A stretch of 64,000 nucleotides of DNA from Octopus vulgaris (lineage: Eukaryota): NCBI GenBank assembly GCA_951406725.2, contig OX597837.1:2976001-3040000 (forward strand), in the 5' to 3' direction. A model generated the notes under the pieces. It ran no database searches, had not been told where the DNA came from, and saw nothing but the letters and a program-made list of their open reading frames with translations. Positions 5,493 through 61,227 of the stretch are shown here, one piece after another (within the stretch, counting starts at the first letter, position 1; each line of letters begins with the position of its first letter). Position numbers and translations under genes: made by a program.

Positions 5493-5520
5493 CAATGACC
5501 TTATAACTTGCAGTTTTGGT

Positions 5521-5880
5521 CCGTTACGTTGTGAGTTCAAATTCCGCCGAGGTCGACTTTGCCTTTCATCCTTTCGGGGTCGATAAATTAAGTACCAGCT
5601 ACGCACTGGGGTCAATGTACTCGACTTAATACCTATGTCTGTCCTTGTTTGTCCCCTCTATGTTTAGCCCCTTGTGGGTAATAAAGAAATAGGTATTTCG
5701 TCTGCCGTTACGTTGTGAATTCAAATTCCGCCGAGGTCGACTTTGCCTTTCATCCTTTAGGGATCGATAAATTAAGTACCAGTTACGCACTGGGGTCGAT
5801 GTAATCAACTTAATACCTATGTCTGTCCTTGTTTCTCCCCTCTATGTTTAGCCCCTTGTGGGTAATAAAGAAATAGGTAT
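5521..5880 (+). mobile_element. SINE family B (tRNA head plus Meta-domain-like centre), head-to-tail dimer of the 3' ~184-nt unit
   Basis: Two direct copies of 'gttcaaattccgccgaggtcgactttgcctttcatcctt...aaagaaata' joined at gaaata|ggtatttc. Confidence 0.85.
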
Positions 5881-10784: not shown

Positions 10785-12233
10785 TCACTCTTCGGTATGA
10801 ATAGCTACATGTCGAGTTAAGTGACCTTTATGAGAGAAAGATTTTCCACAGACATCACAATGGTACGGTTTCTCACCTGTATGAATACGTTTATGTATAG
10901 TTAGGTTGTTTCTTACAGAAAATGATTTACCACAGATATCACAGTGATATGGTTTCTCACCCGTATGAATACGTTTGTGAGTAGCTAAACTGCTACTTCC
11001 AGAGAATGATTTACCACAAATATCACAGCGATGTGGTCTTGCTCCACTATGAACACTTCTGTGTCTTGTTAATTCGCTATTTTGAGAGAACGATATATCA
11101 CACACAGCACAGTGATATGGTTTCTCTCCCGAATGAATCCGCTTGTGAATAGTTAAGGTATTTCCATCGGAGAATGATTTACCACAGACGTCACAGCGAT
11201 ATGGCTTTTCACCTGTATGAATACGTTTGTGTCTAGTCAAAACACCATTTAGAGAGAATGATTTACCGCAGATATCACAGTGATATGGTTTCTCCCCAGT
11301 ATGAACGCTTTTGTGTCGAGTTAAGTCGCAAGTTCCAGAGAATGACTTACCACAAATATCACAGTGATATGGTTTCACACCTGTATGAAGACTCCTATGT
11401 CTGGTTAATTCACGATTTAAAGAAAATGATAACCCACAGGTATCACAATTAAATGGTTTCTCACCTGTATGAATGCGTTTGTGGTAAGTTAAGTCACTAC
11501 TTGTAGAGAATGATTTATCACAGGTATCACAGTGATATGGCTTTCCACCTGTATGAATATATTTGTGTCTCGTTAAGGTATTGCCATGAGAAAATGATTT
11601 ACCACAGACATCACAACGATATGGTTTCTCACCTGTATGAATACGTTTGTGTTTAGATAAGTCACTACTTGCTGAGAATAAATTACCACAGATGTCACAA
11701 TGATAAGGTTTCTCACCTGTATGTACACGTTTGTGGTTAGTTAAATAACTACATACAGAGAAGGATTTACCACAAATATCACAGGGAAATGGTTTCTCAC
11801 CTGTATGAATGTGTTTGTGTTTAGTCAAGGTACTTCCATGTGAAAATGATTTACTACAGATATCACAATGATATGGTTTCTCTCCTGAGTGGACATGTGT
11901 GTGGCGAATTAAGTGGCCTCTTTGAGAAAAAGATTTACCACAGACATCGCAGTGATATGGCTTCTCCCCTGTATGAGTACGTTTGTGTATAGTTAAGGTA
12001 TTTCCTCTAGAGAAAGATTCACCACAGATATCACACTGATATGGTTTCTCTCCTGTATGAATGTGTTTATGAGTAGTTAAGTTACCAAGTGCAGAGAATG
12101 ATTTCTCACAGATATCACAGCGATATGGTTTTTCTCCTGTATGTGTATATTTGTGTATGATAAGGTTTCCCTTTTCGGAGAATGACTTTTTACAGATATC
12201 ACAATGGTATGATTTCCCTATCTCTTTTGGCAT
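10785..12233 (-). CDS. Tandem C2H2 zinc-finger protein (ZNF-2), 17 fingers
   Basis: Open ORF; first ATG at 12233 ([11 protein letters not shown]...), whereas the ORF-track start at 12272 is GTG. Predicted acceptor (ctttcatttcag) at 12639 and donor (cag|gtaaaa) at 15577. Confidence 0.93.
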
Positions 12234-12699
12234 GTCTTTAGGAAAAACAAAAAAAAGTTTGTCACAGAACACCTTATGTAAAATTGTTCCCTCATCAAAA
12301 CATATTTTTCTTGTTTCCTCTTCTATATATTCCCATAGTGATGGAAGTTGTTCTACTGATATATTTCCATTGATACATATATATATATATGATGGTTGTA
12401 AACACCTTTACAAAATTATCCAAGATTAATCAGTTTTACAAAATCGTCATCTACATATTCCGGAAGAAAAAAGTTTTTGTTAATCTCAGTTTGGAAGAAA
12501 TATTTTCTCTAATTCACCACAGATTAATAAAATCTGGGTTATATCTGTTCTGTGTAACATCTTTTAGTCTTTAGCAGATGATAAACATTGGTGAAGCATC
12601 TGATGCGAAAGAATTTTATGCAAGTGTCATTTGATAGGCTGAAATGAAAGAGAAACGGAATAAGATAAGGAGGATACTTAAAGAGGAATATATTTCTTT

Positions 12700-13535
12700 T
12701 TTACTTGTTACGTCTGGAAGTGCAAGAATTCATGGATTTTGCAAAGGTCATGAAACTGGTGAACTTGATGGGATTAATGTTCCATTTGAACTGTGGTAAG
12801 TCAAGACCTGCAGGAAAAACATAAGCAGAGAGGAGAGAGGTGGGATCTTTTCGGTTTGAACGGCAGTTTTTAAAAATAATTTCCACGTAACTAAACACTT
12901 TTTAACTTTGTATACTGGTAGAATGTGTTTATAAAACATCGTTTTCTCTTGGCTTTATGGAGAAAATTCTATAGTTTATAAGATATTTGTTGTTGTTTTT
13001 TTCTTCAATTTCTGCAATTTCAACTAATCAATGACGTCTATTGAGGTGAAAACATTCTGTGCCGTATGAATATGTCCCTCGTTTAAGAGACAGATTGGGT
13101 TTATTTACATTTCTGAACAAAAAAAGATACCCTTCCCCCCAGCCCTAACACTAAAACAGATTGAAATGCAATAGATCGATACTAGGGTCATAATTATGGG
13201 TGACAATTTCATATGACACAGCAAGAAAAAAATGCCGTTCAAACCGAAAAGATCCGAGAGGCGATAATTTGGGTTGGAAGGATAGAGATAGGGGTCACAG
13301 CCAAGCTGGGCGGGTTTGGGCACATAGATGACGAGAGATGGAGAGACAAGTGGATTGAGTGTGTCTCAATAATGGAGGTACTAGAACAACCAGCTTCAAG
13401 GAACAGCAGCTACAGCAGTAGCTGAAGGAAAGAAAGAGACTACGTCTGTGGGTCAGAGGCTGGAGTCGAGCATCTAGATGTAACTTCGGATATCTGTCTA
13501 CGTGACAGTAGCCTTCTCAGAAGCAGGAACAAAAT
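12700..13535 (-). mobile_element. Decayed CR1/Jockey-group LINE 3' fragment split by a MITE
   Basis: Minus-strand translation LQPLTHRR...SLLSAYVFPAGLDLPQFKWNIN resembles LINE ORF2 C-termini. Confidence 0.45.
12843..13255. mobile_element. MITE family M1 (28-bp TIR GGATCTTTTCGGTTTGAACGGCAG, 8-bp TSD)
   Basis: TIRs at both ends; TSD gagaggtg/gagaggcg. Confidence 0.85.
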
Positions 13536-13537
13536 TC

Positions 13538-13981
13538 GGATCTTTTCGGTTTGAACGGCATTTTTTTCTTGCTGTGTCATATGAAATTGTCACCCATAAT
13601 TATGACCCTAGTATCGATCTATTGCATTTCAATCTGTTTTAGGGTTAGGAGTGGGGGAAGGGTATCTCTTTTTTTCTTCACAAATGTAAATAAACCCAAT
13701 CTGTTTCTTAAACGAGGGACATATTCATACGGCACAGAATGCTTTTTACCTCAATAGACGTCAGTGATTGGTTGAAATTGCAGAAATTGAAGAAAAAAGA
13801 CAACAAATATCTTGTTTTTTTTCTTCAATTTCTGCAATTTCTTCCAAACTATAGAATTTTCTCAATAAAGCCAAGAGAAAAAGGTGTTTTATAAACACAT
13901 TCTACCAGTATATGAAGTTTAAAATTTTTTAGTTGCATGGAAACCGCTAGAAAAAAACTGCCGTTCAAACCGAAAAGATCC
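13538..13981. mobile_element. MITE family M1
   Basis: TIRs and perfect TSD caaaattc; opposite orientation to the copy at 12843. Confidence 0.88.
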
Positions 13982-14667
13982 CAAAATTCTATTGTGGGCC
14001 TCACATGAACTTTGTAGAGGACCAGCAATTGTTGTTGGGAGGTGGGGGTGAAATATTTTCTGGCTTTAAGTACCTGTTTTGGGATATGCTTTCGTCAGGG
14101 AAGCATTCCTCCCTAACTAAATGCCGGGCTTGCTATCGCTAAGGAGTATCTTCTGCGATAGCGAGGCCCAACATTTGGTTTGGGAGGGGTGAAGGATTAT
14201 ATCTGTTTCTTTATTGCCCACAAGGGGCTAAACATAGAGGGGATAAACAAGGACAGAAAAACGGATTAAGTCGATCACATCAACCCCAGTGTGTAACTGC
14301 TACTTAATTTATTGACCCCGAAAGGATGAAAGGCAAAGCAGACCTCAGCGGAATTTGAACTCAGAACGTGATGGCAGATGAAATACGGCTACGCATTTCG
14401 CCTGGCGTGCTAACGATTCTGCCAGCTCGCCGCCTTTACCTCCAAAGAAGGCGTTGTCAGACTTCGCAAACAAAAACTGATGTACAGAAGAAAAGAAGTG
14501 GCAGGGACAAAACGAAACCATGGGGGTCATACCAAAATTGATTGTGGAACAGGAAGGGCCCAGTCAACACATGCTGCAGTTGTGTAATTTGATAGGAAAG
14601 TAGCGATCTCTTGGATCGGTAGTTTAAAAGTTGAGATTTAACATTGGAAGCTTAGTAACTATATTTC

Positions 14668-15283
14668 TGTACTACTAGCGAACAGTGGTCCCGGTGCGCG
14701 CCCTCGCGCCAGCTAGTCATGACTAGTCGATCCTTACTTTGTGTTTTTGTGTTATTTACTTTGTTAAAAAAATTATTTACTTTACTCTTTTACTTGTTTC
14801 AGTTATTTGACTGCGGCCATGCTGGAGCACTGCCTTTAGTCGAGGAGATCAACTCCGGGACTTATTCTTTGTAAGCCCAGTACTTATTCTACAGGTCTCT
14901 TATGCCGAACCGCTAAGTGATGAGGACGTAAACACACCAGCATCGGGACAAACACACACACACAAACACGACAGGCTTCTTTCAGTTTCCATCTACCAAA
15001 TCCACTCACAAGGCATTGGTCGGCCCGGGGCTATAGCAGAAGACACTTGCCCAAGGTGCCACGCAGTGGGACTGAACCAGGAACCATGTGGTTGGTTAGC
15101 AAGCTACTTACCACACAGCCACTCCTGCGCCTCCTACTTTGTTTAACAAAAATTATTTACTTTGTGTAAAAAAATTATTTATTTTGTGTTTTATTTACTT
15201 TGCCAGGCAGTCGTTTAGGATCGACTACTTACGACTAGCTAGCGCCGATGCGCGCACCGGGACCACTGTTCGCTAGTAGTACC
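14668..15283. mobile_element. Merlin-like MITE family M2 (TIR GGTACTACTAGCGAACAGTGGTCCCGGTGCGCG, 9-bp TSD) containing a family A SINE (~14785-15132, -)
   Basis: Long TIRs; TSD ctatatttc at 14659-14667 and 15284-15292. Confidence 0.8.
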
Positions 15284-15300
15284 CTATATTTCTATAATCT

Positions 15301-15532
15301 TATTTCTTTATTACCCACAAGGGGCTAAACACAGAGAGGACAAACAAGGACAGACAGACGGATTAAGTCGATTACATCGACCCCAGTGCGTAACTGGTAC
15401 TTAATTTATCGACCCCGAAAGGATGAAAGGCAAAGTCGACCTCGGCGGAATTTGAACTCAGAACGTAACGGCAGACGAAATACCACTAAGCATTTCGCCC
15501 GGCGTGCTAACGTTTCTGCCAGCTCGCCGCCT
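15301..15532 (-). mobile_element. Full-length SINE family B
   Basis: Complete head (ggcggcgagctggcagaaacgttagc) through tail; 16-bp TSD tatatttctataatct. Confidence 0.9.
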
Positions 15533-15822
15533 TATATTTCTATAATCTATTGATTAATTGTAAATATAAACTTTTACCTGAATCGTTCGCCTCTAAAGCT
15601 TCTTCCAGTACAGAATCGAAAATATACAAATGAACTGATGGATGAATATATTAAGGTATTTATATATACGATTATCTCGTAGATAACAGCATTATTTTTA
15701 CCTGACTTCATATAATTCTTGTTAAATTGTTTTGGTGATGCTTAATCTATGTTGGCATGTGCTCAATATCCGGTTGAGCATGCGCAAAACGTGAGAAAAC
15801 TATTCAATAAGTAAACAGAAGG

Positions 15823-16045
15823 GGTACTAGTAGCGAACAGTGGTCCCGGTGCGCGCACTCGCATATCCGAGCTAGCTAGTCGTGACTAGTCGATCCTACA
15901 ACGACTACTTAGCAAAGTAAATAAAATACAAAATAATCTTTTTTAAATAAAGTAAATAAAACACAAAGTAAGGATCGACAAGTCACGACTAGCTATCGCG
16001 GATGCGCGTGTACGCGCACCGGGACCGCTTTTCTTAAGTAGTACC
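15823..16045. mobile_element. Merlin-like MITE family M2
   Basis: Same TIR as 14668 and 41333. Followed by a tandem SINE B dimer (16046-16385, -). Confidence 0.75.
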
Positions 16046-17233
16046 TATTTCTTTACTACCCACAAGGGGCTAAACACAGAGGGGACAAACAAGGACAGAC
16101 AGACGGATTAAGCCGATTATATCGACTCGAACCTGAAAGGATGAAAGGCAAAGTCGACCTCGGCGGAATTTGAACTCAGAACGTAGCGGCAGACGAAATA
16201 CCTATTTCTTTACTACCCACAAGGGGCTAAAACACAGAGGGGACAAACAAGGACAGACATAGGTATTAAGTCGATTACATCGACCCCAGTGCGTAATTGG
16301 TACTTAATTTATCGACACCGAAAGGATGAAAGGCAAAGTCGACCACGGCGGAATTTGAACTCAGAACGTAGCGGCAGACGAAATACTTGAAATGCAATAG
16401 ATCGATACTAGGGTCATAATTATGTGTGACAATTTTATATGACACCACTAGAAAAAACTGCCGGTCAAACCGAAAAGATCCAAGAAATGTTCAGTCTGCC
16501 CACCCAGGGGTCTGTGCATTGAGCCCCAATGATTGTTTTTGTGGTCTTGGATAGCAGGAACATGTCTGGTCACAGTGATGTTATCATATTGATCAACATC
16601 AATGGAAATTGTAGCTGTGATACCAGTCCCAGTGGCACATAAGAGAACCATCCAAACGTGGCTGTTGCCAGCACCGCCCCGACTAGCATCCTTGCCGGTG
16701 GCACGCAAAAAGCACCATCCGATCGTGACTGTTTGCCAGCCTCGTCTGGCCTCTGTACCGGTGGCACGTAAAAAGCACCATCCAATTGTGGCCGTTTGCC
16801 ACCCTCGTCTGGCACCTGTGCCAGTGGCACGTAAAAAGCACCCACTACACTCACGGAGTGGATGGCGTAAGGAAGGGCATCCAGCTGTAGAAACACTACC
16901 AGATCAGACTGGGCTTGGTGCAGCCTTTTGGCTTCCCAGACCCCAGTTGAACCGTCCAACCCATGCTAGCTTGGAAAGTGGACGTTAAATGATGATGATG
17001 ATGATGATAGCTTGAAATTCCAAGAACATCGTAACACATTATGAGAATTCTATGCAACTTTGCCCGTGTATTAATTGGAAATTTCGCCCATTCTAAAAAC
17101 ATGGTTATCTCCCTTGTATTGACGGCCATAAACAGATGCAAACGCAGGCAGCTTTTATTTTCTCAAGAGATAAATAATTAGAAGCATTTCTACATATTTC
17201 TCCAATGATTTTTGTGTCTCTAAGTCCTACAGA

Positions 17234-17603: not shown

Positions 17604-19536
17604 AAGTCCTACAGAGTGAAAGCAAAGACACAGAGACGACTATAAAATATAACAATGTGCAGCATCTAACAGAAATGCATGTGCAGAATTAATTCTTGAT
17701 GCTGTGAAAGTCGATTTAATCAATGCTCGATGTGTGAAGGCGATGTAGCAGGTACAGCGCGGCTGCAATTAAGATGCTTGCCTCCCAACCACATAGTTTC
17801 AGGTTCAATCCCATTACAGGATACACTGGGCAAGTGCAGCCTTGGGCTGACCAAAGCCATGCGAGTGAATTTGGTAGACTGCAACTGGAAGAGACTCATA
17901 CATATATATAAAAATACAGGTGCAACAATGGAAAAGTGGATGCTAAAATGATGCTTACCCAGTATTGAGTCCTTATTCCATGCAGTCACATAAAACAAAA
18001 TCCAACACAGAAATAGTACAAATAGATTTTAATTGGGATAATTTACATTTCACATTAAATTGAATTCATAAATTAACAATCATCATCATCATCAACGTCC
18101 CCTTTCCATGCTGGTATGGGTTGGACAGTTTGACTGGGCTGGCATGCTGGAAGGCTGCGCCAGGCTCTATTCTAATTCGGCATGGTTTTCTATGGCTGTA
18201 TGCCCTTAATGCCAACCTCTCCAAGAGTGTAGCGGGTGCTATTAGCATGGCACCAGACTGCACTTACATGCCACTGACATGGGTGCCAATTTGTGTGAAA
18301 CTGGTATCTGCCAAGACTGTGATTTTGTTTGGCTTGATGGGTCTTCTTTTCAAGCATGACATAATGCCAAAGGTCTTGGTCAGTGCTTCCGTGAGGGCCC
18401 AACATCTGAAAGGAACTTGACCACTTTGCCTCCATGCGACCCAAAACTCACATTTTGGCACAAAACCAGCAATTTCGGAAGAGGGAATAAATCGATTACA
18501 TCGACCCCAGGGCTCAGCTGATATTTATTCTCATCTGGCCTTCGTGCTGGTGGCACGTAAAAAGCACCATCCGATCGTGGCCGTTTGCCAGACTCATCTG
18601 GCACCTGTGCAGGGGGCACGTAAAAAGCACCCACTACACTCACGGAGTGGTTGGCGTTAGGAAGGGCATCCAGCTGTAGAAACACTGCCAGATCAGACTG
18701 GGCCTGGCACAGCCTTCTGGCTTCCCAGACCCCAGTTGAACCGTCCAACCCATGCTAACATGGAAAATGGACGTTAAACGATGATGATGATGATGATGAA
18801 GGCAAAGCAAACCTTGGTGGAATAATTGATTCGTTAAATATTAGAAACCAATTTTCCCAAAGAAAAACCAATCCATACAAATCAAACTCATAAAATAAAG
18901 AAAGGTTATATGTTTTAAAAGGAAGAGCATGTCAGAGAAAAGAAAGAAAGGACAAAGAAAAGCACAGCATCCAACGAAGAAGAAGAGGGTGGATATATGG
19001 AAAATAAAGGAAGAGTCTGCTGGTGTCATCCGTTTCTCATTCATTAAATCATTAGCAAAATCGATCCTTTTAGATTCTGTTTTACATTCAAGCTTGTTTG
19101 CACATAATTCATTTTGTATAATTCTTCTGCATTCACCACAATATACAGATGTGTTTCATTTGAATATGAGACATTTTGGTACTTCTGTTTTGATGTCACT
19201 GCTTCCATACTGACCTATTTGATGGCAAAGGTTTTATAGAAGCAACTGTGAGTCTTCCACACACACAAAGAAAAAAAAAACTTGCTCAGGCCTATACCTA
19301 CAGATGCAGGTAAATGATCAATTTTGAGCAATGGCAAACCCTGTCTACCCACCCAGAAAGAAAAATAATTTGTAATAAATAAACATACAGAATGATTATT
19401 AGGGTGACTCCTAATTAGTGACCATAGAGTCTGGTGGGGAAAAAAAATTGATGGAAAAATAATTTAGTTTCTATTTTTAATATACGCTGGTAGTGTATAT
19501 TAAAATTGTTGCGTTTGAAAGGCTCATAGTCACAAA

Positions 19537-20054: not shown

Positions 20055-20457
20055 AGATCTTTTCCTTTTGAACGGCACTTCGTATGAAATTGTCACCCAT
20101 AATTATAACCCTAGTATCGATCTATTGCATTTCTATCTATTTTAGATTTAGGGTTAAGGGTTGGGGAAGGGTATCTTTTTTTCTTCACAAATGTAAATAA
20201 ACCCAATCTGTTTCTTAAAGGAGGGACATATTCATTATGCACAGAATGTTATTTACCTAAATGGACGTCAGCAATTGGTTAAAATTGCCGAAATGCTCGA
20301 AATTAAAGACGAAATATGTTACAACATATAAAATTTTCTCAATAAAGCCAAGAAAAAAATGATGTTTTATAAACACATTGTACCAGTATACAAAGTTTAA
20401 AAGTGTTTAGTTAACTAGAAATTATGTTAAAAACTGCCGTTCAAAAGGAAAAGATCC
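20055..20457. mobile_element. MITE family M1 (variant TIR GATCTTTTCCTTTTGAACGGCA)
   Basis: TIRs and perfect 8-bp TSD cgtttaga. Confidence 0.85.
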
Positions 20458-20551: not shown

Positions 20552-21170
20552 TTACTGCTTTTTATGAATACGTAAGTGTCTAATTAAGTGACCATCTTGA
20601 GAAAACGATTTACCACAGGTATCACAATGGTATGGCCGCTCACCTGTATGGGTGCGTTTATGGTTATTTAAATGGTCATTTCTAGAGAATAATTTCCCAC
20701 AGGTAACACAGCAATATGGCTTTTCTCCTGTATGAATACGTTTGTGTTTAGCTAAATGAACATTTTGAGAGAAAGATTTACCACAGGTAACACACTGATA
20801 TGGTTTCTCACCTGTGTGAGTGCGTTTGTGACGAATTAAATGGCAATCAAGATTAAAACATTTACCACAGACATCACAACTAAATGGCCTCTCTTCTGTA
20901 TGAATAAGTTTGTGGGTGATTAAATTACTTTTGGAGAATGATTTACCACAAATATCACAACGATATGGTCTGTCACCTGTATGAGTACGTTTGTGTTTAA
21001 TTACAGCACTGCTTCGAGAGAATGTCTTGCCACAGATGTCACAATAGAATGGCATCTCTCCTGTTTGAATACGTTTAGGAGTAGTTAAAGGATTAGGCAA
21101 TAAAAATGATTCTCCACAGACTTCACACTTGTATGGCCTCTGTCTTGTATGACTGTGTTTATGAATAATC
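20552..21170 (-). pseudogene. N-terminally truncated C2H2 zinc-finger gene (ZNF-3), 6 fingers plus 1 degenerate; possibly a pseudogene
   Basis: Fingers are colinear with ZNF-5 (both end HKKQ*). The leader and ancestral ATG are absent and an in-frame stop lies at ~21173. The ORF-track start is TTG; the first ATG is at ~21054. Confidence 0.7.
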
Positions 21171-22765
21171 TCTTATATAAAATCCGTTCTGTCTGTCTGT
21201 GTGTGTGTGTCTTCTAGGATCTCGGGCATCCTCCATCCGATTGATGTATCCGAGATACAGACGTATTTTATGCCAATGTCACCGTATATTCTGAAATAAG
21301 ACAGGAATACAAAGATATAGTTAAAAAAATCTGAAGTTCAGTCATGAATATTTTACTAAGTTCCTATATACATGCTTTCCGTACGTATACGGAAAGCGTG
21401 TATATAAAATTATAGAATTATTTTGTTTGTTAATTGTTTAAATTATTTTCCATTGCTTTCGTTTTTTTTTTTACACGCGTAACAATTAAATTAATTTAAC
21501 AATTAAGAAAAAAAAATTAGGGTTAGGGTTAGGTTGAGGGTTAGTGACAGGATGTTGTCTCAGTTTTAGATGCAGCAAATGATTTTAGCTCAAAAGAGAG
21601 CATAGGATTGGTTAAAATTCAAAAATTAAACTACGTTAAACAAACAAATTACAATTTTCTCAAGAAAGTCAAGAGAAAAAAATGTTTTATTTTGACACTA
21701 CCAATATACGAAGTTTTAAAGTGTTTAGTTAACTAGAATTTGTCTGCCGTTCAAAAGGAAAAGATCCCTTTATAATATTAGTTATTAAATATTAATGTTT
21801 GTTTTTTATAAAATGGGGTATATTTGATTTGCATTAAATTATTATTTACGATTATAATCACAAGTAACACTCAAATTCTTTTCACTTCAATGTTTTTTTT
21901 TTCTGTATTTAATTTCGTTTTGCACATTTTCGTCAATTCGCTACGATCTCTTTAAAGTAAGCAAAATCAAAAAAATTTAGATGGGATGGGTTTAAAATTT
22001 CTGGTTAATGTTTACATCTTGACCCGGAAATGAAAATAAAAAAAACCAAAAAAAAAAACCACTGGAATGGGTGTAAAACAATGTCTAGGAAACGAATATG
22101 AAAAACAAACAAAATGCGCTCAAAGCAACTTCGGAAAATTCACAAAATCCGAGTTTCCCTCTCATAATTTTTAGCAAAAATGGGGGTTTCTTTCAATGAA
22201 ATTTTATATAAATATCTTTCAAAAGGCATACATTGTGACTATAAAGTAATTTGTGGGGAAAATCTTGAAGTGGGGAGAGGACTTTGGGAAAATTCCCAAG
22301 ATCCGAATTTCTATCCACTTTCAATAATTTTTTATGTTTTGGCTTCAATTTTATTTCATTTTCAATTATTTTTACGCTTTTTTAACCCTTCATCGTTAAT
22401 CTCGTTCACTTCTTTTTTTAGCATATTTGTAATCACCGACATCTAAATCCGAAAATTTTTTTTTTCAAAAAAATGCATTTTTCAATAACTGTATTACCCC
22501 CGAAAAATAATTCGAAAAAAAAAAGTTAAAATTTAAAAGTTTGGGGTTAACAATTTTGAAAACATGGTTTTTGGCAGATTCAGAATCTCCGTCATCGAAA
22601 CATAGGAATCCTCTGAAAAAATTTCAAAAAAAAAGAAAGAAAAAAAGGGTCGATTTTTTCGTGCCGGTATACTTGTAAACATTAACCAAAAGTCCTCTCC
22701 CAAACCCGATGATTCCACCCCACCCCACGTTTTCCGGGTACAAAAGTAATTAAAACAAAGTAAAT

Positions 22766-24112: not shown

Positions 24113-24321
24113 AATAAACGGAAATGGGTGGAAGTGCTTATGCTTCACTCCAGAAATATATACCTAAAAATCAAAGATCGCACACAAGGCGAATCTAAAA
24201 CTATGGGCGCCCACTAATAATTTTAGCGAAAATAACAGCTTCAAAATTTAGCACAGGGCCAGCAGTTTTTTTAGGGGAGACGACAAGTCGATTACATCGA
24301 CTGTAGTGATTCACTGGGTGC

Positions 24322-24786
24322 AGCTACGTTCTGAGTTCAAATTCCGCCGAGTTCGACTTTGCCTTTCATCCTTTCGGGGTCGATTAAATAAGTACCAGTT
24401 ACCCACTGGAGTCCATATAATCGACTTCACCCGTTTGCCTGTCCTTGTTTGTCCTCTCTGTGTTTAGCCCCTTATGGGTAGTAAAGAAATAGGTATTTAT
24501 TTCAGACTCCGAAAGGATGAAAAGCGAAGTCGACTTCAGTGGTATTACAACTGTGAGCTTAAAGAGAACAAATACCTATTTCTTTACTACCCACAAGGGG
24601 CTAAACACAGAGAGGATAAACAAGGACAGACAAACGGATTAAGCCGATTATATTGACCTCAGTGTGTAACTGGTACTTATTTAATCGACCCCGAAAGGAT
24701 GAAAGGCAAAGTCGACCTCGGCGGAATTTGAACTCAGAACGTAGCGGCAGACGAAATACGGCTAACGATTCTACCAGCTCGCCGCC
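24322..24786. mobile_element. Two SINE B copies, tail to tail
   Basis: + copy 24322-24497 and - copy 24571-24786. Confidence 0.8.
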
Positions 24787-25801
24787 TAAAGATAACAAAA
24801 CCATGAAGCATTTTGTTTGGTGTATTATCTATTCTGCCAACATGCTGCCTTAATTTTAACGAAAGATAACGTGAGGTTATCCTGTACTGAAAAGATATCA
24901 TTTTGTTAGTTAGTTATTTCCCCCCCTACTTTTCAGGAGGAATTCGAATTACCAAAGCACCGCCGCCAAGCCACTGGCGCCTTCGACTTTAATCAGCGCC
25001 TAACTGTTAATCTGTTATAAAACCATATTATCATGTAATACTTCTTTGTGTAATACCGCATCTACAGGCCATATACTGTACAGATATAAATAACTAAACA
25101 TCGTCATATACCAGTCTTCCCACTGGCTTTCCATATCTCGACATAGAGTGATTTCCCTTCTAAGCCACAACACCTGATCGATAACCTAATCGATAACCTC
25201 AATCTATTGACCTATAAACTCAATTGATGATGAATACCCAACAAAGAATTATATTATGGTTAGTAATATAGCTGAAATACTTTTATTTTCTAATTTGCTG
25301 ATTTAACATAACGTTTTCTATTAACGATTTATTTAATATGTATTGAAGACGGAATCACCTTCCTTCCGTAACATTTTTAATTTTATATTCTAACTAAAAA
25401 TTTCTCCGGAATCCTGTGTTTTAAACAACACCAGGAAATATAATATTGAAAACAAAATTTTTTAAAAATTTCAATTGCACTTTGTTTTTCGTTTAACAAT
25501 TTTTGATACCCCCAATTCAAAAATATAAAAACTGATCGTGAGTTTAAATATTCCGTCACTTTTACGAACGGAAAAAACAAAAATCATATATTTCTTTATT
25601 GCCCACAGGAGGCTAAACATAGAGGGGACAAACAAGGACAGACAAAGGGATCAAATCGATTATATCGACTCCAGTGCACATATGTAGGTGTACGTGTTTG
25701 TTTCTTGTCTTGGCATCATGCTAGTTGCAAATGAGCAGTACCAGTGGTGTTCGTTTTCATCCTTCCATGAAAACATATCAGGCTATAAGACAATATTATC
25801 T

Positions 25802-26215
25802 GGATCTTTTCGGTTTGAACGGCAGTTTTTTCTAGCGGTGTCATATGAAATTGTCACCCATAATTATGACCTTAGTATCGATCTATTGCATTTCAATCTG
25901 TTTTATGGTTAGGGGTGGGGGGAAGGGTATCTTTTTTTCTTCACAATTGTAAATAAACCCAATCTGTTTTTTAAACGAGGGACATATTCATACTGCACAG
26001 AATGTTTTTAAACCACAATAGATGTCAGTGATTGGTTGAAATTGCAGAAATTGAAGAAAAAAAAACAACAAATATCTTACAAACCATAGAATTTTCTCAA
26101 TAAAGCCAAGAGAAAAAAGATGTTTTATAAACACATTCTACCAGTATATGAAGTTTAAAAGTGTTTAGTTACCTAGAAATTATGTTAAAAACTGCCGTTC
26201 AAACCGAATAGATCC
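25802..26215. mobile_element. MITE family M1
   Basis: TIRs and perfect TSD tattatct. Confidence 0.88.
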
Positions 26216-26746
26216 TATTATCTTACTTGTAAATAAGTGAAGATTGGCAACATAAATGCATCCAGCCATAATAAATCTGCCTTATTGAATTCTATTTGAC
26301 CCATGCATGCATGGAAAATTGTATATCAAAACAATGATGATAGTAATGAAGATTTGTGCATATTTTGTCTTTGTCTAATGTTAAGTCTTACACTGTCATA
26401 TTTTCTTGCTTTACAGTTGTGTTACTTGGACATTCTAATGTAACCTGTAGTAGAAGACTATCATTTCTATGAGAACATCTGCTGCCAGTTATTTATGAAC
26501 TCTCTATATTCTCTAGCCTACATAACATCCATTGACATTTATTAATCTAAATATAAAAGTCTTTTTGTTTACATCAGTGTGAGAAGATTCAACTAGTCTC
26601 TGTGGTAAGTAGAAAATATATCTACATTACATATTTCCTGCACAGCTAAGCAAAGGCTTAAGATATTGAAGGCAAGGAACTGAACCACAGCTGAGTATAT
26701 ACACACAAACATTTCTCTGCTTTTAAGAATTTCATCAACACTTAAT

Positions 26747-27559
26747 ATGGAGGGTGTCGATCCCTTGAACACTTCAAATATAACTGTTTTTGCCCGTAAA
26801 GATACAGCTTCGCAAACGTGCAGTGATGAGGAAAGCTTGTGTGATGAAATGTTTACTACTAAACGAATATCGTTACACAGGAACACGTGCAAATATCGTT
26901 GTGGGATCTGTAGGAAAATATTCTCCTCAAAACAAGAAGTCTTTGCACACAGAAAAATACACAATAAGGAAAGATCTTGCTACTGTGAGATATGTGGAAA
27001 ATCTTTTGGGAATAGATCGGATCTTGTTATCCACAAAAATAGTCACAATGAAGAGAAACCCTTCCACTGTGGAATTTGCGGGAAAGCTTTTTTCTCTAAC
27101 AGTAAATTAACACGACATAAAATAGTTCACAGCGGAGAAAAACCGTTCCATTGTCAAATCTGCGGAAAATCTTTCACGCAAAATTCAAATCTTATTATTC
27201 ATAAACGAATACACACGGGGGAAAATCCATTTCACTGTGAAACATGTGGAAAGGCTTTCATTAACAATTCAAGCCTTACGATCCATGTTCGTAGCCACAC
27301 GGGAGAGAAACCATATTACTGTGAAACATGTGGTAAATCCTTCGTGGATAACAGCAATTTGACAAGACACAAACGAATCCATACTGGGGAAAAGTTTTTC
27401 CACTGTCAAACGTGCGGAAAATCTTTCATTGAAAACTCTAAGCTTACGATCCACATACGCAGCCACACTAAAGAAAAACCGTATCAGTGTGAAATCTGTG
27501 GAAGATCATTCTCTGTTAACTCCAGTCTTGTTGTCCACAAACGGGTTCACACCGGATAA
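26747..27559 (+). CDS. C2H2 zinc-finger protein (ZNF-4), 270 aa, 8 fingers
   Basis: ATG-initiated ORF with 8 CxxC..H..H units. Candidate acceptor ttgctttacag at 26416. Helix residues (NSxL-rich) and leader differ from the other five genes. Confidence 0.9.
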   Translation: MEGVDPLNTSNITVFARKDTASQTCSDEESLCDEMFTTKRISLHRNTCKYRCGICRKIFSSKQEVFAHRKIHNKERSCYCEICGKSFGNRSDLVIHKNSHNEEKPFHCGICGKAFFSNSKLTRHKIVHSGEKPFHCQICGKSFTQNSNLIIHKRIHTGENPFHCETCGKAFINNSSLTIHVRSHTGEKPYYCETCGKSFVDNSNLTRHKRIHTGEKFFHCQTCGKSFIENSKLTIHIRSHTKEKPYQCEICGRSFSVNSSLVVHKRVHTG

Positions 27560-30963: not shown

Positions 30964-31589
30964 GTGAGTTGGTATTTCCTTGTCTTGACGTCTCATGAAT
31001 TTTGTAAATAAGTGTCACCATCATATAAGTGGTCTCCTTCATTTCCCATCTTTCGTGTAAAACATGTCCAGCTATCAGGGTAAAAATGTCCTTACAGGGA
31101 CACAGGTGAGGGTCGGTGATAGCAAGGGTACCTATCTATAGAAAAATCTGCTTCAACATATTCTATCCAATATAATTGTTTGGCGTTAGGAAGGGCATCT
31201 AGCTGTAGAAACTCTGCCAGATCAAGATTGGAGCCTGGTGCAGCCATCTGGTTTGCCAGCCCTCAGTCAAAATCGTCCAACCCATGCTAGCATGGAAAGC
31301 GGACGTTAAACGATAATGATGATGATAATATGCAAGTATAGAAAAGTAGATGTTAAAATGATGATGATGATGATGAAAGTGATGGTGAAAAGAGAAGGAA
31401 AATGTTGAGATGATTTGTTGAAAATATTCTTTTATAAACAGAAATAAAAAGAAGCAATTTTGAAGAAACTCGTGTAAAATCTTAACATTAAGATTTCTGA
31501 CAAAAAATACTCTTACGTAAATTAAAATCATCGTCTTCGTTTTAGTGTTTACTTTTTCCTGCTTGCCTGGGTCAGACAAAATTGGTTGA

Positions 31590-32048
31590 GGCAGATGGAC
31601 ACATTGAAACTCCGACGTCTGGCAGCTGACTTGGCAGAAACCCATAAAATTATCAACCATCTTACAAACAATAACTCTGAGCACCTTTTCAAACTCCACC
31701 CGTCTAACACCTGTGGACATATTTACAAAGTCAGAAAACAGCACAGCTCCCATGACTTTCGGAAACATTTTTTCACGCTAAGAGTTGCTGAAGCATGGAA
31801 CAAACTGCCGGCATCAGTTGTTAGTTGTCGGAGCACTGCATCCTTCAAAACTTCCATACTTCCTGAGATTCGCCAACACTACACCTGATTTTCCCCCCCA
31901 CCCCGTACACACACAAGCGTGTATCTGACTCATACACTGTTCACTTTCCAGACATTTGTACATTACTGCATATGCTTTATATGCACTTTTGACAAGTCGT
32001 GGTGCACCTGAGCACTGTATACAATAATTTCATTATTATTATTATTAT
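31590..32048 (+). mobile_element. CR1-type LINE 3' end
   Basis: LKLRRLAADL...FFTLRVAEAWNKLP...FK ORF2 C-terminus, 3' UTR and (TTA)n tail. Second copy at 36835-37030 (-). Confidence 0.85.
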
Positions 32049-33359: not shown

Positions 33360-33769
33360 GGATCTTTTCGGTTTGAACGGCAGTTTTTAAAAATAATTTC
33401 CACGTAACTAAACACTTTTAAACTTCGTATACTGGTAGAATGTGTTCTAAAACATCTTTTTCTCTTGGCTTTATTTAGAAAATTCTGTAGTTTGTAAGAT
33501 AATTGTTTTTTTTTCCTTCAATTTCTACCAATCAATGACGTCTATTGAGGTAAAAAAACATTCTGTGCCGTATGAATATGTCCCTCGTTTAAGAAACAGA
33601 TCAGGTTTATTTACATTTCTGAAGAAAAAAAGATGCCCTTCCCCCACCCCTAACCCTAACCCTAAAACAGATTGGAATGCATTAGATCGATACTAGGGTC
33701 ATAATTATGGGTGACAATTTCATATGACACCGCTAGAAAAAAAAACTGCCGTTCAAACCGAAAAGATCC
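33360..33769. mobile_element. MITE family M1
   Basis: TIRs; TSD ataatttc/ataatttt; internal (CCCTAA)3. Confidence 0.87.
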
Positions 33770-34413: not shown

Positions 34414-34477
<64 letters not shown>

Positions 34478-34479
<2 letters not shown>

Positions 34480-34708
34480 TTCTTTATTACCCACAAGGGC
34501 CTAAACACAGAGGGGACAAACAAGGACAGACAAGCGGATTAAGACGATTACATCGACCCCAGTGCGTAACTGGTACTTATTTAATCGACCCTGAAAGGAT
34601 GAAAGGCAAAGTCGACCTCGGTGGAATTTGGACTCAGAATGTAAAAACAGACGAAATACGGCTACGCATTTCGCCCGGCGTGCTTACGATTCTGCCAGCA
34701 CACCGCCT
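34478..34708 (-). mobile_element. SINE family B
   Basis: Full-length copy between (TA)n tracts. Further copies at 14205-14435, 40755-40986, 47189-47530 and 48333-48562. Confidence 0.85.
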
Positions 34709-35704: not shown

Positions 35705-36006
35705 GCCTTTTTCAAGCCTAGCCAGGCTCATGGGCCCAGTTTCCTGGTTTCTGTGGCGTGTGTGTTCCCCCCAGCTGGACAGGATGCCAGTCCATTGCAA
35801 CGTTACTCAAGAAACAGGAAGAGAGAGTGAGAGAAAGTTGTGGCAAATGAGTACAAAGGGGTCGCCACTACATCCTGCCGGAGCCTCATGGAGCTTTTAG
35901 GTGTTTTCACTCAATAAACACACACAACGCCTGGTCTGGGAATCGAAACTGCAATCCTCCGACTGCAAGTCTGCTGCCTTATCCACTGGGCCATTGCGCT
36001 TCCACT
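35705..36006 (-). mobile_element. SINE family D in the 5' UTR part of the ZNF-5 exon
   Basis: tRNA-like head at 35930-36006; absent from the paralogous ZNF-6 leader. Confidence 0.75.
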
Positions 36007-36097
36007 GTTGATGTATAGGAGAATATATATTTGTAGAAATAAAATATCTAAAGGAAAAGGAGAAAAGGCATCTGTATATATTGGTGAGCATAGAAAT

Positions 36098-36778
36098 ATG
36101 GAAAACAAGCTGAATTATAAAACACAAAGTAAAAAGATTGATTTTTCTGAAACAGCTCACTTAAGAAGTCACAAACATACTCAAACAAGTGAAAAATCGT
36201 ACTGTGATATCTGTGGGAAATTATTCACTCGAAAGAATATTGCAGTTCATAAACGCAGCCACACGGGAGAAAAACCATATCGGTGTGATATCTGTGGTAA
36301 GACATTCTCTCAAAGTTGCGCTGTAATTAAACACAAACGTACTCATACAGGTGACAAACCATATCGTTGTGAGATCTGTGGTAAATCATTCTCTGAGAGT
36401 CATAATTTAAGTAGACACAGGCGTATTCATACAGGAGAGAAGCCGTTTTGCTGTCAAATTTGTGGTACATCTTTTACGCTAAATCATCATTTGACTCGTC
36501 ACAAACACACTCACACAGGAGGTAAGCCATATCAGTGTGTTACCTGTGGTAAATCTTTCTCTCAAAATGTTCATTTAACTAAACACAAACGTATCCATAC
36601 AGGTGAAAAGCCATATTGCTGTGTTACTTGTGGTAAATCATTCTCTCGAAATGATCTCTTAACAAATCATATACGCACTCATACAGGTGAGAAGCCATAC
36701 AATTGCGACATCTGTGGCAAATCATTTTCTGAAAATGGTCCCTTAATTAAACATTCGCGTATTCATAAAAAGCAATAA
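36098..36778 (+). CDS. C2H2 zinc-finger protein (ZNF-5), 7 fingers
   Basis: Open ORF. ATG 36098 (MENKLNYK) matches the ZNF-6 start; an upstream in-frame ATG lies at 36011. Acceptor tatttcag at 35574. Confidence 0.9.
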   Translation: MENKLNYKTQSKKIDFSETAHLRSHKHTQTSEKSYCDICGKLFTRKNIAVHKRSHTGEKPYRCDICGKTFSQSCAVIKHKRTHTGDKPYRCEICGKSFSESHNLSRHRRIHTGEKPFCCQICGTSFTLNHHLTRHKHTHTGGKPYQCVTCGKSFSQNVHLTKHKRIHTGEKPYCCVTCGKSFSRNDLLTNHIRTHTGEKPYNCDICGKSFSENGPLIKHSRIHKKQ

Positions 36779-39020: not shown

Positions 39021-39412
39021 ATCGATTATTCCACGAAGGTTTGCTTTGCCTTTCATCCTTTGGGGGTCGATAAAATAAATATCAGCTGAGCACTGGACGG
39101 TCGATGTAATCGATTTATTCCCTCTTCCAGAATGGCTGGTTTTGTGCCAAAATGTGAAACGAATATTTAAAGAATTTGTGAAAATTATAAAATTTGATTG
39201 TTATTTTATGAATTCAGTGTAATGTGGAATGTAAATTATTACAATTAAAATCTCTTTGAACTATTTCTATGTTAGATTTTGTTTAATGTGACTGCATGGG
39301 ATAAGGATTCTACATTGAGTAAGCATCATTTTAGTATTCACTTTCTCATGGCTGCATAGGTCAGATGGAATTTAGTGAGGTAGGTTTTCTACTGCTAGAT
39401 GCTCTACCTGTT

Positions 39413-39556: not shown

Positions 39557-41115
39557 TACCTGTCTTCCATCCTCTCTATTTCCAAGCAAGATTGTAGTTC
39601 TCCATGGTTCTCCATACTTTTGTGGATGACTGGAAATGAGAGACGCTGCTTGTATGATGGGATGGTCAGCTAAATTTATATCTACCACATGATTTCGAAA
39701 CAAGGACATAGATACACACATGCACATGCATTTATATATGTATGGGTTTCTTCCAGTTACTGTCAACGAAATCCACTCACAAGGCTTTGATCAGCCCAAG
39801 GCTGCAGTAGAAGACACTTGTTCAGTATGTCCTGCAGTTGGATTGAATCTGAACCTGTGGTTGGGAAGCAAATGTCTTAATTGCACGGCCTTCGTACACC
39901 AGGCAGTGGTTAAGCCTACTTTCACAGCATGAAGCATTAATTCTGCACATGCATTTCTGTAGATGCTACACATTGTTATATTTCATACTCGTCTCTACGT
40001 CTTCCCTTTGACTCTGTGGGACTTACGGTCTCGAATAATTAGAGAAAAATTCTGGCCCAACACGTTGAGTATGCACAAATGCAGAAACTACAAAAATGTA
40101 TAGAAATACTTCTAATTATCTAATGAAAAAATAAAGCTATATGCGTTTGCATCTATTTATGGCCGTCAATACAAGGGAGATAACCAGCTTCTTCGAACGG
40201 GGAAAATTTCCAATTAATACACGGACAAAGTCGCATAGAATTCTTATAATGTCTTACGATGTTCTTGGAATTTCAAGCTGTATTTTTTATAGTCTTTCTA
40301 GAAGAGTCTCAGTTTTTAGACGCAGCAAATGATTTTAGCTCAAATACAGGCGATTCATTGGTTAAAATTCGAAAAATTAAATTATGATAAACAAACGAAT
40401 TACAAATTTATCAAGAAAGCCAAGTGAAAATAATGTTTTCTTTTGACACATTCTACCAGTATACGAAGTTTTAAAGTGTTTAGTTAACTAGAAATTGTGT
40501 TGAAAACTGCCGTTCAAAAGGAAAAGATCCGAGATGGTGATAACATCACTGTGACCCGACAAGTGCCTGTTATCTAGGAACATAAAAGCAATCATTGGGG
40601 ATCCATGCACAGGTTCCTGGGTAGGCAGACTGAACATTTTTCATTAAATGTCAGGACTCGGGCTATAGAAAATTTGCCACAGACATACCACAGTAAGATT
40701 AATTTCTCGATCTGTCGTTCAAAGGGAAAAGAGCCAACACATCGTACTTATACCTATTTCTTTACTACCCACAAGGGGCTAAACGCAGAGGGTACAAACA
40801 AGGACAGACAAACGGATTAAGTCGATTATATCGACCCCAGTGCGTAACTGGTACTTATTTAATCGACCCCGAAAGGATGAAAGGCAAAGTCGACCTCGGC
40901 GGAATTTGAACTCAGAACGTAGTGGCAGACGAAATATCGCTAAGCATTTCGCCCAGCGTGCTAACGTGTCTGCCAGCTCGCCGCCCATCGACCGTAATGT
41001 AGTGTGCTATATCAATTTCTGTAGGTTTTAACGTTAAAACAAAAAAATATTATAATAAATGTGCACAAGCATGTATTTCAAAAGCAATAGGGAAAACAAC
41101 AATTTTAATCCCTAG

Positions 41116-41332: not shown

Positions 41333-41619
41333 GGTACTACTAGCGAACAGTGGTCCCGGTGCGCGCACTCACGCTAGCTAGTCATAAGTAGTCGATCCTA
41401 CAACGACTTTTTAACCCTAACCTTAGTTTGTTTACAAAAATAAATTATTTACTTAGTATAAAAAAAATTATTTACTTTGTTCGAAAAATATTATTTAATT
41501 TTCTTTGATATGTATTCAGCCTTGAAATACAAACATACGCGCAAGACGTTGTAGGATCGACTACTTACGACTAGCTAGCGCGTGTGCGCGCACTGGGACC
41601 ACTGTTCGCTAGTAGTACC
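41333..41619. mobile_element. Merlin-like MITE family M2
   Basis: ~75-bp imperfect TIRs; degenerate 9-bp TSD aacctgttc/aacatgtac. Confidence 0.8.
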
Positions 41620-43300: not shown

Positions 43301-43325
43301 TGTATATTTTGGTGAGCATAGAAAT

Positions 43326-47559: not shown

Positions 47560-49890
47560 GTTTCGCAAGTGTTAAGGCCACTCATTGAGATGTCTCCTGG
47601 TGTTTGTGAAAGCACAGAGGACCTTTTCAACAGGGTTAATGAATGTAACCGCTCCTACAACCTGACAGATTGTATAGTAGGCAGTATGGATGTGGTATCA
47701 CTCTACCCATCTATCGACATTGACTTTGCTGTAGAAAGATGTGTGGAAATTATCTCCGAGAACGAGTTATTCTTCTGTGAGGTGAACACATTGGAACTGG
47801 GCCTCCCCCTGAAGCTCGTTTACGATAGAGAATACTTGGCTCACCACGACCTAAGTAGATTCTGTCCCACTAGGTAGACAAATGCGGTAGACAAATCGCA
47901 ATCACATCAACAGCTAGGAAAACCACCGCACATGCAGTGGGTGCAAGTTTAAAGATCACCCTACAGAACCATATAGTTAAATTCAACGAGAAGCTTTATA
48001 TACAAGTTCAGGGGATAGCCATCTGTGTCAGTGTGGCTGGGGACGTAGCTGGCCTATTCATGGTCTGATGGGCTAGAAAACTGAAATAAGCTCTTGAGGA
48101 GCACTCAGTAGTAATCAGAATGTATGGGAGATATGTGGATGACATCAACATCATGTTCAAGACACCATCGAACAATCAGACTGAAGAGAACGAGAGTTCA
48201 TGATGGAAAGCATTCAGGGTATAGCTAATTCCGTACACCAAAGCATCAGGGTAACTATAGATTACCCAACAAGGCACTCAAACAAGAGACTCCCAGTCCT
48301 TGACACAGAGCTTTGGCTAGAAACCGTTTACAAGGCGAGCTGGCAGAAACATTAGCACACCGGACGAAATGCTTAGCGGTATTAAGTCTGCCGTTACGTT
48401 CTGAGTTCAAATTCCGCTGAGGTCGACTTTGCCTTTCATCCTTTCGGGGTCGATTAAATAAGTACCAGTTACACACTGGAGTCGATGTAATCGACTTAAT
48501 TCGTTTGTCTGTCCTTTTTTGTCCCCTCTGTGTTTAGCCCCTTGTGGGCAATAAAGAAATAAGAAACCGTTAACAACAAAGTTCAAATTCTCCACTTACA
48601 CTGTATGAAACCCATGTCCTTGAAGTATGTAGTCCGTAAGAGTTCGGCTCTATCACATAATGTGAAAATTAACATATTAATAGCTGACTTAGAATAATGA
48701 AAAACATATTACCCTCTGTGCAAACCCTGGAAGAACCAGAAACACACACAAGACCTCATGCATCACATGCAATTTTCGGGAACGTAACGGCAGACGAAAT
48801 ACCTATTTCGTTACTACCCACAAGGGGCTAAACACAGAAAGGACAGACAAAGGGATTAAATCGATTACATCGACCCCAGTGCGACCCCGAAAGGATGAAA
48901 GGCAAAGTCGACCTCGGCGGAATTTGAACTCAGAATATAACGGCAGTCGAAAGATAGGATTCGAGTGTACAGTGGGGCTAGCAAGAAATTTGAAGAGATT
49001 GTGAATAAGGATGCCGATGGAACACAACCTAGTTACCGTAATAAGCAGTAGAATAGAATAGAAAGAATTTATGATAAAGGGAACAAAAAGAACACATGGT
49101 ACAATGCCGACAAGTTCCAAGGGATAATGTTTGTAGAAGCCACACCACACGGGGAACTAACCTGCAGATTTAGAAAAATCCTGAAGGATACAAAGTTGAA
49201 CATAAAAGTCATAGAAAAATTAGGGCGACCCATCAGGTCAGTAATATGCAAAACAAACCCCTTCAGAAAGACCACGTGTGTAGAGGAGAACTGTGTAGTG
49301 TGCAGGGGATAAACACAGAGAGGACAAACAAGGACAGACAAACGGATTAAGTCGATTATATCGACCCCAGTGCGTAACTGGTACTTATTTAATCGACCCC
49401 GAAAGGATGAAAGGCAAATTCCGCCGAGGTCGACTTTGCCTTTCATCCTTTCGGGGTCGATTAAATAAGTACCAGTTACGCACTGGGGTCGATATGATCG
49501 ACTTAATCCGTTTGTCTGTCCTTGTTTGTCCTCTCTGTGTTTAGCCCCATTGTGGGTAGTTAAGAAATAGATATAGTTCTGGTGTCAACTGCAAAACCAG
49601 AAACGTAGTTTATCGAATAAAATGCTTGGATGGTGATTGTGAAAACCAGAAGTCTGCATACATAGGTGAAACGGCGAGAAGTTTCGCCGAACGTATAAAT
49701 GGACATTGGCGGGAATTCAGGAATCAAAACAAGCCTCGATACTCTACTAGCATGCCAAAGAACAACATGGTGTTGTGTTGAACCGGATTAGCATAGAAAT
49801 GTTGTCTAGATATCCGGACGACACATCGCTACGACAGGTACGAGAGTCAGTCTCCATAAATGAAGCACGACCAGTTTTGAATAGTAAATA
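47560..49890 (+). mobile_element. Decayed Penelope-like element (RT, Cys-rich linker, GIY-YIG endonuclease; Neptune-like), interrupted by SINE B copies
   Basis: GSMDVVSLYPSI, LYIQVQGIAI, YGRYVDDI, C..C..C linker, NVVYRIKC...AYIGETARSFAERI; multiple stops and frameshifts. Confidence 0.85.
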
Positions 49891-61033: not shown

Positions 61034-61195
61034 ACCAACACCACCACCACTACCACCACCACCAAGACCACAACCACAATCACCAACACGACCACTGCTG
61101 CGGCTGCCGTCACTGCCGCCACCGCCGCCACCACCACCACCACCATCACCACCACCACCACCACCACCACCACCACCACCACCGCCACCACCACC

Positions 61196-61227
<32 letters not shown>

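Follow-up and report, generated by a model that had tools for sequence, protein, structure and literature searches.

In SINEs and LINEs of the RTE, CR1, and L2 clades, the 3' terminus of the element overlaps its target, and the type of tail sets where the TSD starts (PMC6007223). Near-identical SINEs of the AfroSINE subfamilies carry different 3' extensions and correspondingly different TSD starts, for which pairing between RNA and target is the proposed cause (PMC6007223). Head-to-tail multimers are described for bivalve SINEs, including a blood clam class in which a complete first head is followed by units whose heads are truncated at the same position (PMC11481361), and squamates have SINE-derived satellites made of head-to-tail units (PMC10702118). 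Non-LTR retrozymes carry a type I hammerhead in each unit, and rolling-circle copying is proposed for them (10.64898/2026.07.22.740005). In circRNA-derived pseudogenes, back-spliced exons leave an end-to-start junction that is fixed in genomic DNA (PMC4897178). Octopus OR2 and CORE-SINEs are named in PMC4758252, which gives template switching and recombination as the standard explanations for the exchange of SINE modules.

The window, by which we mean the whole 64-kb stretch of DNA that was analyzed, contains a 231-nt repeat, SINE B, whose positions we number 5 to 235, with the restart G of its junctions at position 52. Within the window, BLAST gave 24 HSPs and nhmmer 23 hits for SINE B, and the two methods together placed 15 3' ends at dispersed loci. 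The terminal base is identical in 14 of these ends, and the remaining one is 2 nt shorter; the 15 copies differ from the copy majority by 2.6 to 11.2%. SINE B is thus a short, dispersed, multicopy, noncoding element, as a SINE should be. Its head contains words that we take to be A- and B-box-like. ARAGORN at default settings called 0 tRNA genes in SINE B and gave inconsistent calls at a lowered threshold, on account of which a tRNA-intron reading of the head hairpin was dropped; a search of the element against Rfam returned no tRNA match. SINE B presumably resembles octopus OR2 and CORE-SINEs in its tRNA-like head and in a central domain, which it has in common with an older sister family in the window, and the window as a whole presumably resembles octopus DNA. 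Two exact-pattern scans for SINE B relatives in bacterial and archaeal genome contigs (GTDB) returned 0 loci. Six copies are full length with both ends present. Clear TSDs flank four of them (15532, 48334, 34709, and 24787), that of 40985 is partial, and 14436 has none; the variable TSD lengths are those of target-primed insertion. The monomer at 15301 to 15531 had been predicted to be full length with a TSD, and its TSD is indeed perfect.

The original prediction was that the 3' end of SINE B is joined to one internal site at seven places, and all seven junctions were found, the one at 48803 with one substitution in the tail. An eighth, at 16046 and with GGTAC, had not been listed. GGTA directly follows 8 of the 15 3' ends, including all seven listed junctions, and the match to the head restart in these eight runs for 23, 5, 16, 4, 7, 7, 5, and 24 nt before the first mismatch, whereas the other seven ends match for 0 to 1 nt. 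The 12 ends that face flanking DNA are bimodal, with a restart match of 4 to 7 nt in 5 and of 0 to 1 nt in 7. Given a GGTA frequency of 0.003 in the window, the probability that at least 5 of 12 such ends start with GGTA is 2e-10. The junction is precise and recurrent. The restart also lies where it had been placed, at the 3' edge of a loop: position 52 is the last loop base of a head hairpin of -20.3 kcal/mol. The proposed complementarity between the terminus and an internal TATTTC is a real 6-bp pairing, and a 6-bp stem with the SINE B terminus is possible at just 5 of 211 restart positions. Our sample is six junction loci in one 64-kb window, and several of the tests reported here are post hoc. 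Coordinates are collected in Table 1.

Table 1. SINE B copies, their units, and neighboring elements in the window
Coordinates	Strand	Feature
5521..5691	+	Homodimer unit a, the first; SINE B positions 65-235, 5'-truncated
5692..5875	+	Homodimer unit b; SINE B positions 52-235 (184 nt), beginning at restart; G75 shared with unit a only
5812..5824	+	Internal variant (derived) at positions 172-184; 12 of 13 bases can pair with junction
5876..5880	+	Terminal GGTAT, overlap of RNA and target
14206..14434	-	Junction-free monomer, full length; no TSD found
15301..15531	-	Junction-free reference monomer; perfect 16-nt TSD (15285-15300, 15533-15548)
15468..15505	-	Extended hairpin of tRNA-like head; restart at 15484, 3' edge of loop
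15823..16045		MITE-like element; the 16386 dimer targets its terminal GGTAC; terminus recurs in other copies
16046..16202	-	Heterodimer unit b, positions 52-235 with internal deletion; 3' end adjoins MITE-like GGTAC terminus
16203..16386	-	Heterodimer unit a, positions 53-235; 5' joint in middle of another repeat family
24270..24318	-	3' piece of host SINE, from about position 139 on; tail differs
24320..24491	+	5'-truncated SINE B copy (64-235), antisense in same host at second GGTA site
24492..24576	-	Host SINE middle, positions 52-140, 66/85 identical; begins with downstream TSD copy 24560-24576
24577..24786	-	SINE B copy with head, nested in older related SINE at its position 52
24787..24852	-	Host SINE head, 39/56 identical to SINE B 2-57; upstream TSD copy 24787-24802
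34477..34707	-	Full-length monomer without junction; TSD within TA microsatellite
40750..40985	-	Copy of full length with head, ends in GGTAT; GGT plus 5-nt match upstream (partial TSD)
48334..48561	+	Near full-length monomer without junction; TSD begins AGAAA
48780..48952	-	Positions 56-235 followed by 24 nt (positions 52-75); no TSD found
49415..49569	+	Copy with inverted 5' partner; groups with junction lineage; flank 1 mismatch from GGTAT

The junctions had further been described as reading through into a second unit, from a few nucleotides to its full length. This holds for three of the eight (5691, 16202, and 48803), where a young second unit follows: 184 nt at 5691, a unit with an internal deletion at 16202, and 24 nt at 48803. 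These three young internal junctions are non-colinear and run end to start, as in circRNA-derived pseudogenes (PMC4897178). It does not hold at 24576, 24491, and 16046, where the DNA after the junction is preexisting target: the head of an older SINE, the antisense core of that same SINE, and a MITE-like terminus, respectively. Five junction ends face flanking DNA past 4 to 7 matching bases, and it was this overlap of the short read-throughs with target DNA that had been overlooked. No junction locus has more than two units; there are two dimers and one 1.1-mer. The bivalve and squamate arrays comprise 4 to 15 units with truncated tails and are discussed as products of recombination at the DNA level (PMC11481361, PMC10702118), whereas SINE B has at most two units, complete tails, and one joint that appears at dispersed loci and target sites.

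One junction was captured with its target. Copy 24787 lies within an older relative that is about 70 to 80% identical to it, and its TSD (16/17 nt) starts at host position 52; the three host pieces around it outscore 500/500, 500/500, and 499/500 shuffles. Because the host head lies upstream, host positions 52 to 140 lie downstream, and the TSD runs from position 52, the junction at 24576 was demonstrably made at the DNA level, by an insertion with a TSD at the restart site. GGT also occurs within 17 nt of the 5' joint at four of five terminal-junction loci, twice abutting it, versus one of seven non-junction loci (binomial P = 0.003 on a background of 0.158; Fisher P = 0.07). The nested copy 24787, the antisense copy 24319 in the same host, the MITE-like GGTAC, and the upstream GGT make the preference for GGTA(T) targets the primary fact about these loci. 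As in SINEs of the RTE, CR1, and L2 clades, the 3' terminus of SINE B overlaps the start of the target or TSD (PMC6007223). Those SINEs have a microsatellite tail and, in animals, an overlap of 1 to 2 nt (PMC6007223), whereas SINE B overlaps by 4 to 7 nt of its own internal sequence and is therefore its own best target. The window has 18 GGTATTT sites, and SINE B heads or junctions account for eight of them. Within the head, position 52 is the sole sense-strand site with the GGTA(T) word and also offers the longest possible match. A second class of ends is marked by AGA, which follows 3 of the 7 non-junction ends (P = 2e-4) and looks like the tail repeated; given this class and the bimodal flanks, two tail types exist.

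The 5' joints show some further regularities. After GGT, the upstream TSD copy is short by 1 nt at 24787-24802 and by 7 nt at 40986-40993, both beside head-bearing copies on the minus strand, and at two truncated junction copies the upstream flank stops exactly at GGT. The missing bases may mark a second-strand cut after GGT. At the 5521 dimer, GGT adjoins the 5' joint (5518-5520), as a 3-nt TSD or a blunt insertion. In copy 24787 the 5' arm of the hairpin is internally deleted, and its own position 52 is a C.

These observations point to a linear RNA that guides its own insertion site, in preference to a circular one. We think it somewhat probable that Pol III read-through RNAs from junction-bearing sources carry a GGUAU(UUC) extension that pairs with the target at the nick, by which the junction would regenerate itself. 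Underlying this reading are the fixed 3' end, the GGTA overlap, the one TSD-flanked insertion at position 52, the junction copies that bear a head, and the heterodimer. A LINE reverse transcriptase would copy the tRNA-head SINE B starting at a fixed base, the end of AAGAAATA. Pol III that meets no run of T reads on past the 3' end of its template. A run of four T is absent from the reference copy 15532, and because SINE B lacks such a run, Pol III transcripts would continue into the flank of the source copy. In some source lineages that flank would be the SINE's own sequence from position 52 onward, and, as target-primed reverse transcription proceeds, the extension GGUAUUUC... may base-pair with the target strand that was nicked. 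Such lineages would insert ahead of GGTA(T) because of this pairing, and daughter copies would inherit the matching flank, presumably from the source copy. Since position 52 offers the longest match, copies would land in SINE heads and rebuild the junction there. Nested composites would then be copied as linear RNAs, with heterodimers like 16386 as the result. Head-less dimers may reflect a stall of the reverse transcriptase in the head hairpin or an RNA that had lost its 5' end. Under this reading, the RNA usually must extend beyond the 3' end into the restart sequence. A source copy of the form head-unit-young unit was not found in the window.

An equal target overlap could come from an endonuclease preference. 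Here one of two partner LINEs would cut at GGTA(T) regardless of the RNA tail, heads would be hit as bearers of the word, and dimers would be later copies of nested composites. Target overlap, GGT upstream, and both insertions into the older host, at its position 52 and antisense, would follow from such a preference, and this is the other serious rival, if a fairly unlikely one: two enzymes are required for elements with the same tail, and neither the AGA class (3 of 7 ends) nor the all-or-none match lengths are explained. A search with the last 65 nt of SINE B found no non-SINE match in the 64-kb window and thus no LINE with the SINE B tail, which counts against this rival and also against self-guided insertion by a read-through RNA.

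Three junctions call for more than insertion into a head. The possibility that all junctions are simple nested insertions was rejected for 5521, 16386, and 48952, which have no diverged head within 200 nt upstream; the best upstream candidates were equaled by 158, 418, and 312 of 500 shuffles, respectively. Because no head lies upstream, these three young internal junctions need RNA or cDNA that already crossed the junction. Tandem duplication after insertion is unlikely at 5521, where unit a lacks positions 52 to 64 that are present in unit b. It would be allowed if the upstream GGT there is positions 52 to 54 followed by a 10-nt deletion, which is possible. For empty sites, the comparison covered the flanks of 16386 and the host at 24.5 kb. 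The flanks of 16386 come from two different repeats, one of them a TTAGGG-like repeat copy to whose middle the dimer is joined, and a target deletion is therefore implied.

The 5' ends of the junction loci are themselves unevenly placed. Head sequence upstream of position 52 is present in two of the six (40985 and 24787), and the other four start at 53, 56, 64, and 65, just past the restart. All six non-junction copies that reach the head hairpin pass it (Fisher P = 0.06 against the four of six junction loci that start at 53 to 65); with the hairpin-arm deletion of 24787 counted, five of six junction loci are affected and P is about 0.015, as calculated by hand and post hoc. A simple stall of the reverse transcriptase leaves this clustering unaccounted for, which weighs against the read-through RNA. 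It would suit a circle and also a programmed template jump, in which the RNA is cut or the reverse transcriptase stops in the head loop, a terminal helix holds the 3' end beside position 52, and the enzyme jumps end to end to the same or another RNA. The jump would place the restart at the only 6-bp hairpin site, accommodates both homodimers and heterodimers, and has a parallel in reverse transcription through structured RNAs with close ends, mentioned in PMC4897178.

Predicted folds bear on this jump in both directions. Among 15 shared variants, G225 alone clearly raises the probability of the end-to-end helix in a head-less unit, from 0.07 to 0.26, and with C68 the closing helix reaches 0.52 to 0.71. 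Four of five junction units, the head-less ones of the G225/C68 lineage, have 9 to 13 end-to-end pairs, versus 0.0 to 0.7 in three of four non-junction copies; the fourth non-junction copy has 5.7. Unit 5692b, however, has 0.1, the helix is absent from folds of RNA with a head (P = 0.0), and the G225/C68 signal is one lineage and hence one datum. Moreover, a jump cannot yield the five terminal junctions, which run just 4 to 7 nt past the end and overlap target DNA. We therefore regard a programmed jump as unlikely to be the main source of the junctions.

Variants and trees were used to trace the junction units. C223 occurs in 0 of 8 junction units versus 4 of 7 others (P = 0.026), C68 in 5 of 8 versus 0 of 4 (P = 0.08), and G225 in 6 of 8 versus 2 of 7 (P = 0.13); tail type thus tracks sequence lineage. 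The tree comprises 15 units, the pieces without a 3' end (48803c, 47189, 47530, and 49421i) having been left out. It is weak, with 0 of 12 branches starred, and splits the junction units between two groups. Units a and b of 16386 belong to separate groups and are not sisters (AU P = 0.00025), as expected of a copied nested insertion. Units a and b of 5521 group as sisters (support 86/81) and are the only ones with G75, which needs template reuse, nesting within the same lineage, or tandem duplication in the source.

The original prediction had weighed itself against descent of every junction copy from a single dimeric master. Monophyly of the junction units was rejected at P = 0.03, indicating at least two lineages, and was not rejected with copy 49415 included (P = 0.064); this copy is possibly a decayed junction type. 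The other mark of such a master, that units never exceed two, was found. A chance duplication of DNA between two GGTAT words could have produced one or two dimeric masters, in the absence of any self-targeting loop. This would accord with the weak tree and with the test that includes 49415, and any terminal-junction copy is flanked by direct GGTAT repeats. We nevertheless judge this origin highly improbable. It fails on the independent position-52 insertion in the older host, on the heterodimer, and on the target overlap, and once pairing with the target is added to it, it becomes the read-through mechanism.

The original prediction itself was that the loop is cleaved and the RNA ligated into a 184-nt circle, copied by rolling reverse transcription. 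A circle would suit the homodimer 5521, which bears two junction motifs, and copy 48803, which runs across the junction and stops internally, at position 75, away from the fixed start; this end weighs against the read-through RNA. Besides its place at 5812-5824 (Table 1), a three-base internal variant occurs at 5628-5640 and in 16386a, hence in three units at two loci; with it, 12 of 13 bases are complementary to the junction in place of 9, a match reached by 2 of 300 shuffles. In circular folds of unit 5692b, the helix between the junction and the 172-184 variant has a predicted probability of 0.87 to 0.99, and the junction-linked G225 and C68 would likewise favor closure. As a linear splint at 5692b the same pairing was rejected, being weak in the ensemble (0.32 and 0.001). 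Neither the junction hairpin (5 of 211 positions) nor the variants that pair across the junction are predicted by the read-through RNA. The 48952 copy also has a private tail substitution at 48809 (minus strand) that adds one pair to the junction hairpin and improves pairing across the junction.

Several observations nonetheless make a head-less circle very unlikely as the main route. Junction copies 40985 and 24787 bear heads, and a 184-nt circle lacks positions 5 to 51; the C that 24787 has at its own position 52 is a further mismatch to a circle; the heterodimer 16386 is impossible from one circle; and one junction was made at the DNA level with a TSD. More than two units never occur, and the circularly permuted copies bounded by TSDs that a circle should leave were found at none of the six junction loci. 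A rod-like circle was rejected as well: circular folds of all five units (16386a minus its missing first G) were no better than those of shuffles, with minimum free energy z scores of -0.2 to +0.9 and 52 to 60% of bases paired. By the same token, SINE B differs from circRNA retrocopies, since two of six loci carry sequence from outside the circle and one junction is a DNA-level insertion; circle-only sequence from one template does not describe 40985, 24787, or the two units of 16386.

That no obvious ribozyme is present, as had been proposed, was borne out. Rfam at the gathering score gave 0 ribozyme hits, with none relevant at E values up to 10, and our own hammerhead and HDV-like descriptors, run without a positive control, matched no strict core on either strand of five regions. 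Like non-LTR retrozymes, SINE B occurs as dispersed monomers and dimers of a short noncoding unit (10.64898/2026.07.22.740005). Unlike them, it possesses full-length monomers, TSDs of 15 to 17 nt, and a tRNA-like head for Pol III, and because the type I hammerhead that defines the group is absent, SINE B is not a retrozyme.

A ribozyme-free variant can be framed in which the SINE RNA is cut in the head loop and closed by host enzymes into a 184-nt circle or concatemer, two lineages independently evolve end-holding helices (the G225/C68 closing stem and the 172-184 splint), and reverse transcription across the seam seeds self-targeting lineages; we hold this to be quite unlikely. The evidence from seam variants is thin because each represents one lineage, but it shows that molecules with the junction serve as sources and that there is structure at the seam. 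Such variants can result from selection for end joining, or else linear sources that bear the junction may have acquired them by templated change or RNA editing. A-to-I editing may be the origin of A/G variants among the 19 pieces, whose spectrum was scored against a majority and is thus undirected. A circle or a programmed jump may have been a minor route or the origin of the first junction.

Other repeats and reading frames share the window with SINE B. An older sister SINE family, at 18480-18527 (-), 39028-39125 (+), and 24270-24852 (-), shares the SINE B central domain (and at 24.8 kb the head too) and has a different tail. About three head-to-tail copies with a different tRNA-like head, a period of 174, and runs of CAC, CGC, and AAC triplets between them form a second SINE-derived tandem at 61166-61670 (+). 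At 47189-47530 and 49304-49569, two SINE B loci contain inverted segments, twin-priming-like or fold-back, of a kind uncommon in a SINE, with breakpoints away from the GGTA sites. A MITE-like family with GGTAC termini occupies 14669-15283, 15823-16045, and 41333-41619, with 9- to 10-nt flanking duplications at two of the three, and the monomer 15301-15531 lies just outside one of these elements. Repeats with a TTAGGG-like unit occur at 13161-13240, 13553-13632, 20080-20135, 25817-25896, and 33672-33754. A degenerate reverse transcriptase-like reading frame at 47560-48330 (+), which is flanked by SINE B copies, is presumably Penelope-like, and a short frame at 31526-31888 (+) resembles what we take to be the C terminus of a CR1/L2-type LINE protein. 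Pfam returned nothing for two reverse transcriptase-like fragments, including the first frame of 47560-48330, and nothing significant for 31526-31888, for which no link to the SINE B tail was found. Genes for C2H2 zinc finger arrays cluster at 244-1851, 10785-12407, 20552-21172, 26684-27559, 35918-36778, and 43278-44342, five of the six with an 84-bp period; together with the repeats, they presumably reflect a cephalopod genome.

Within the open-licence literature, to which our search was confined, no SINE is reported to target its own head at a fixed site through a read-through tail. Were the circle to prove true, SINE B would have a retrozyme-like life cycle without a ribozyme, which would be very surprising to specialists. 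If, as we favor, linear read-through RNAs guide insertion, then the insertion preference of a SINE would be inherited through its read-through flank and not through the LINE enzyme, and a SINE could lock into a loop that targets its own head. SINE B would then provide a natural, high-copy test of the extent to which pairing between RNA and target steers target-primed reverse transcription, and its mode of insertion would be one way for SINE dimers and constant-breakpoint tandem arrays to arise.
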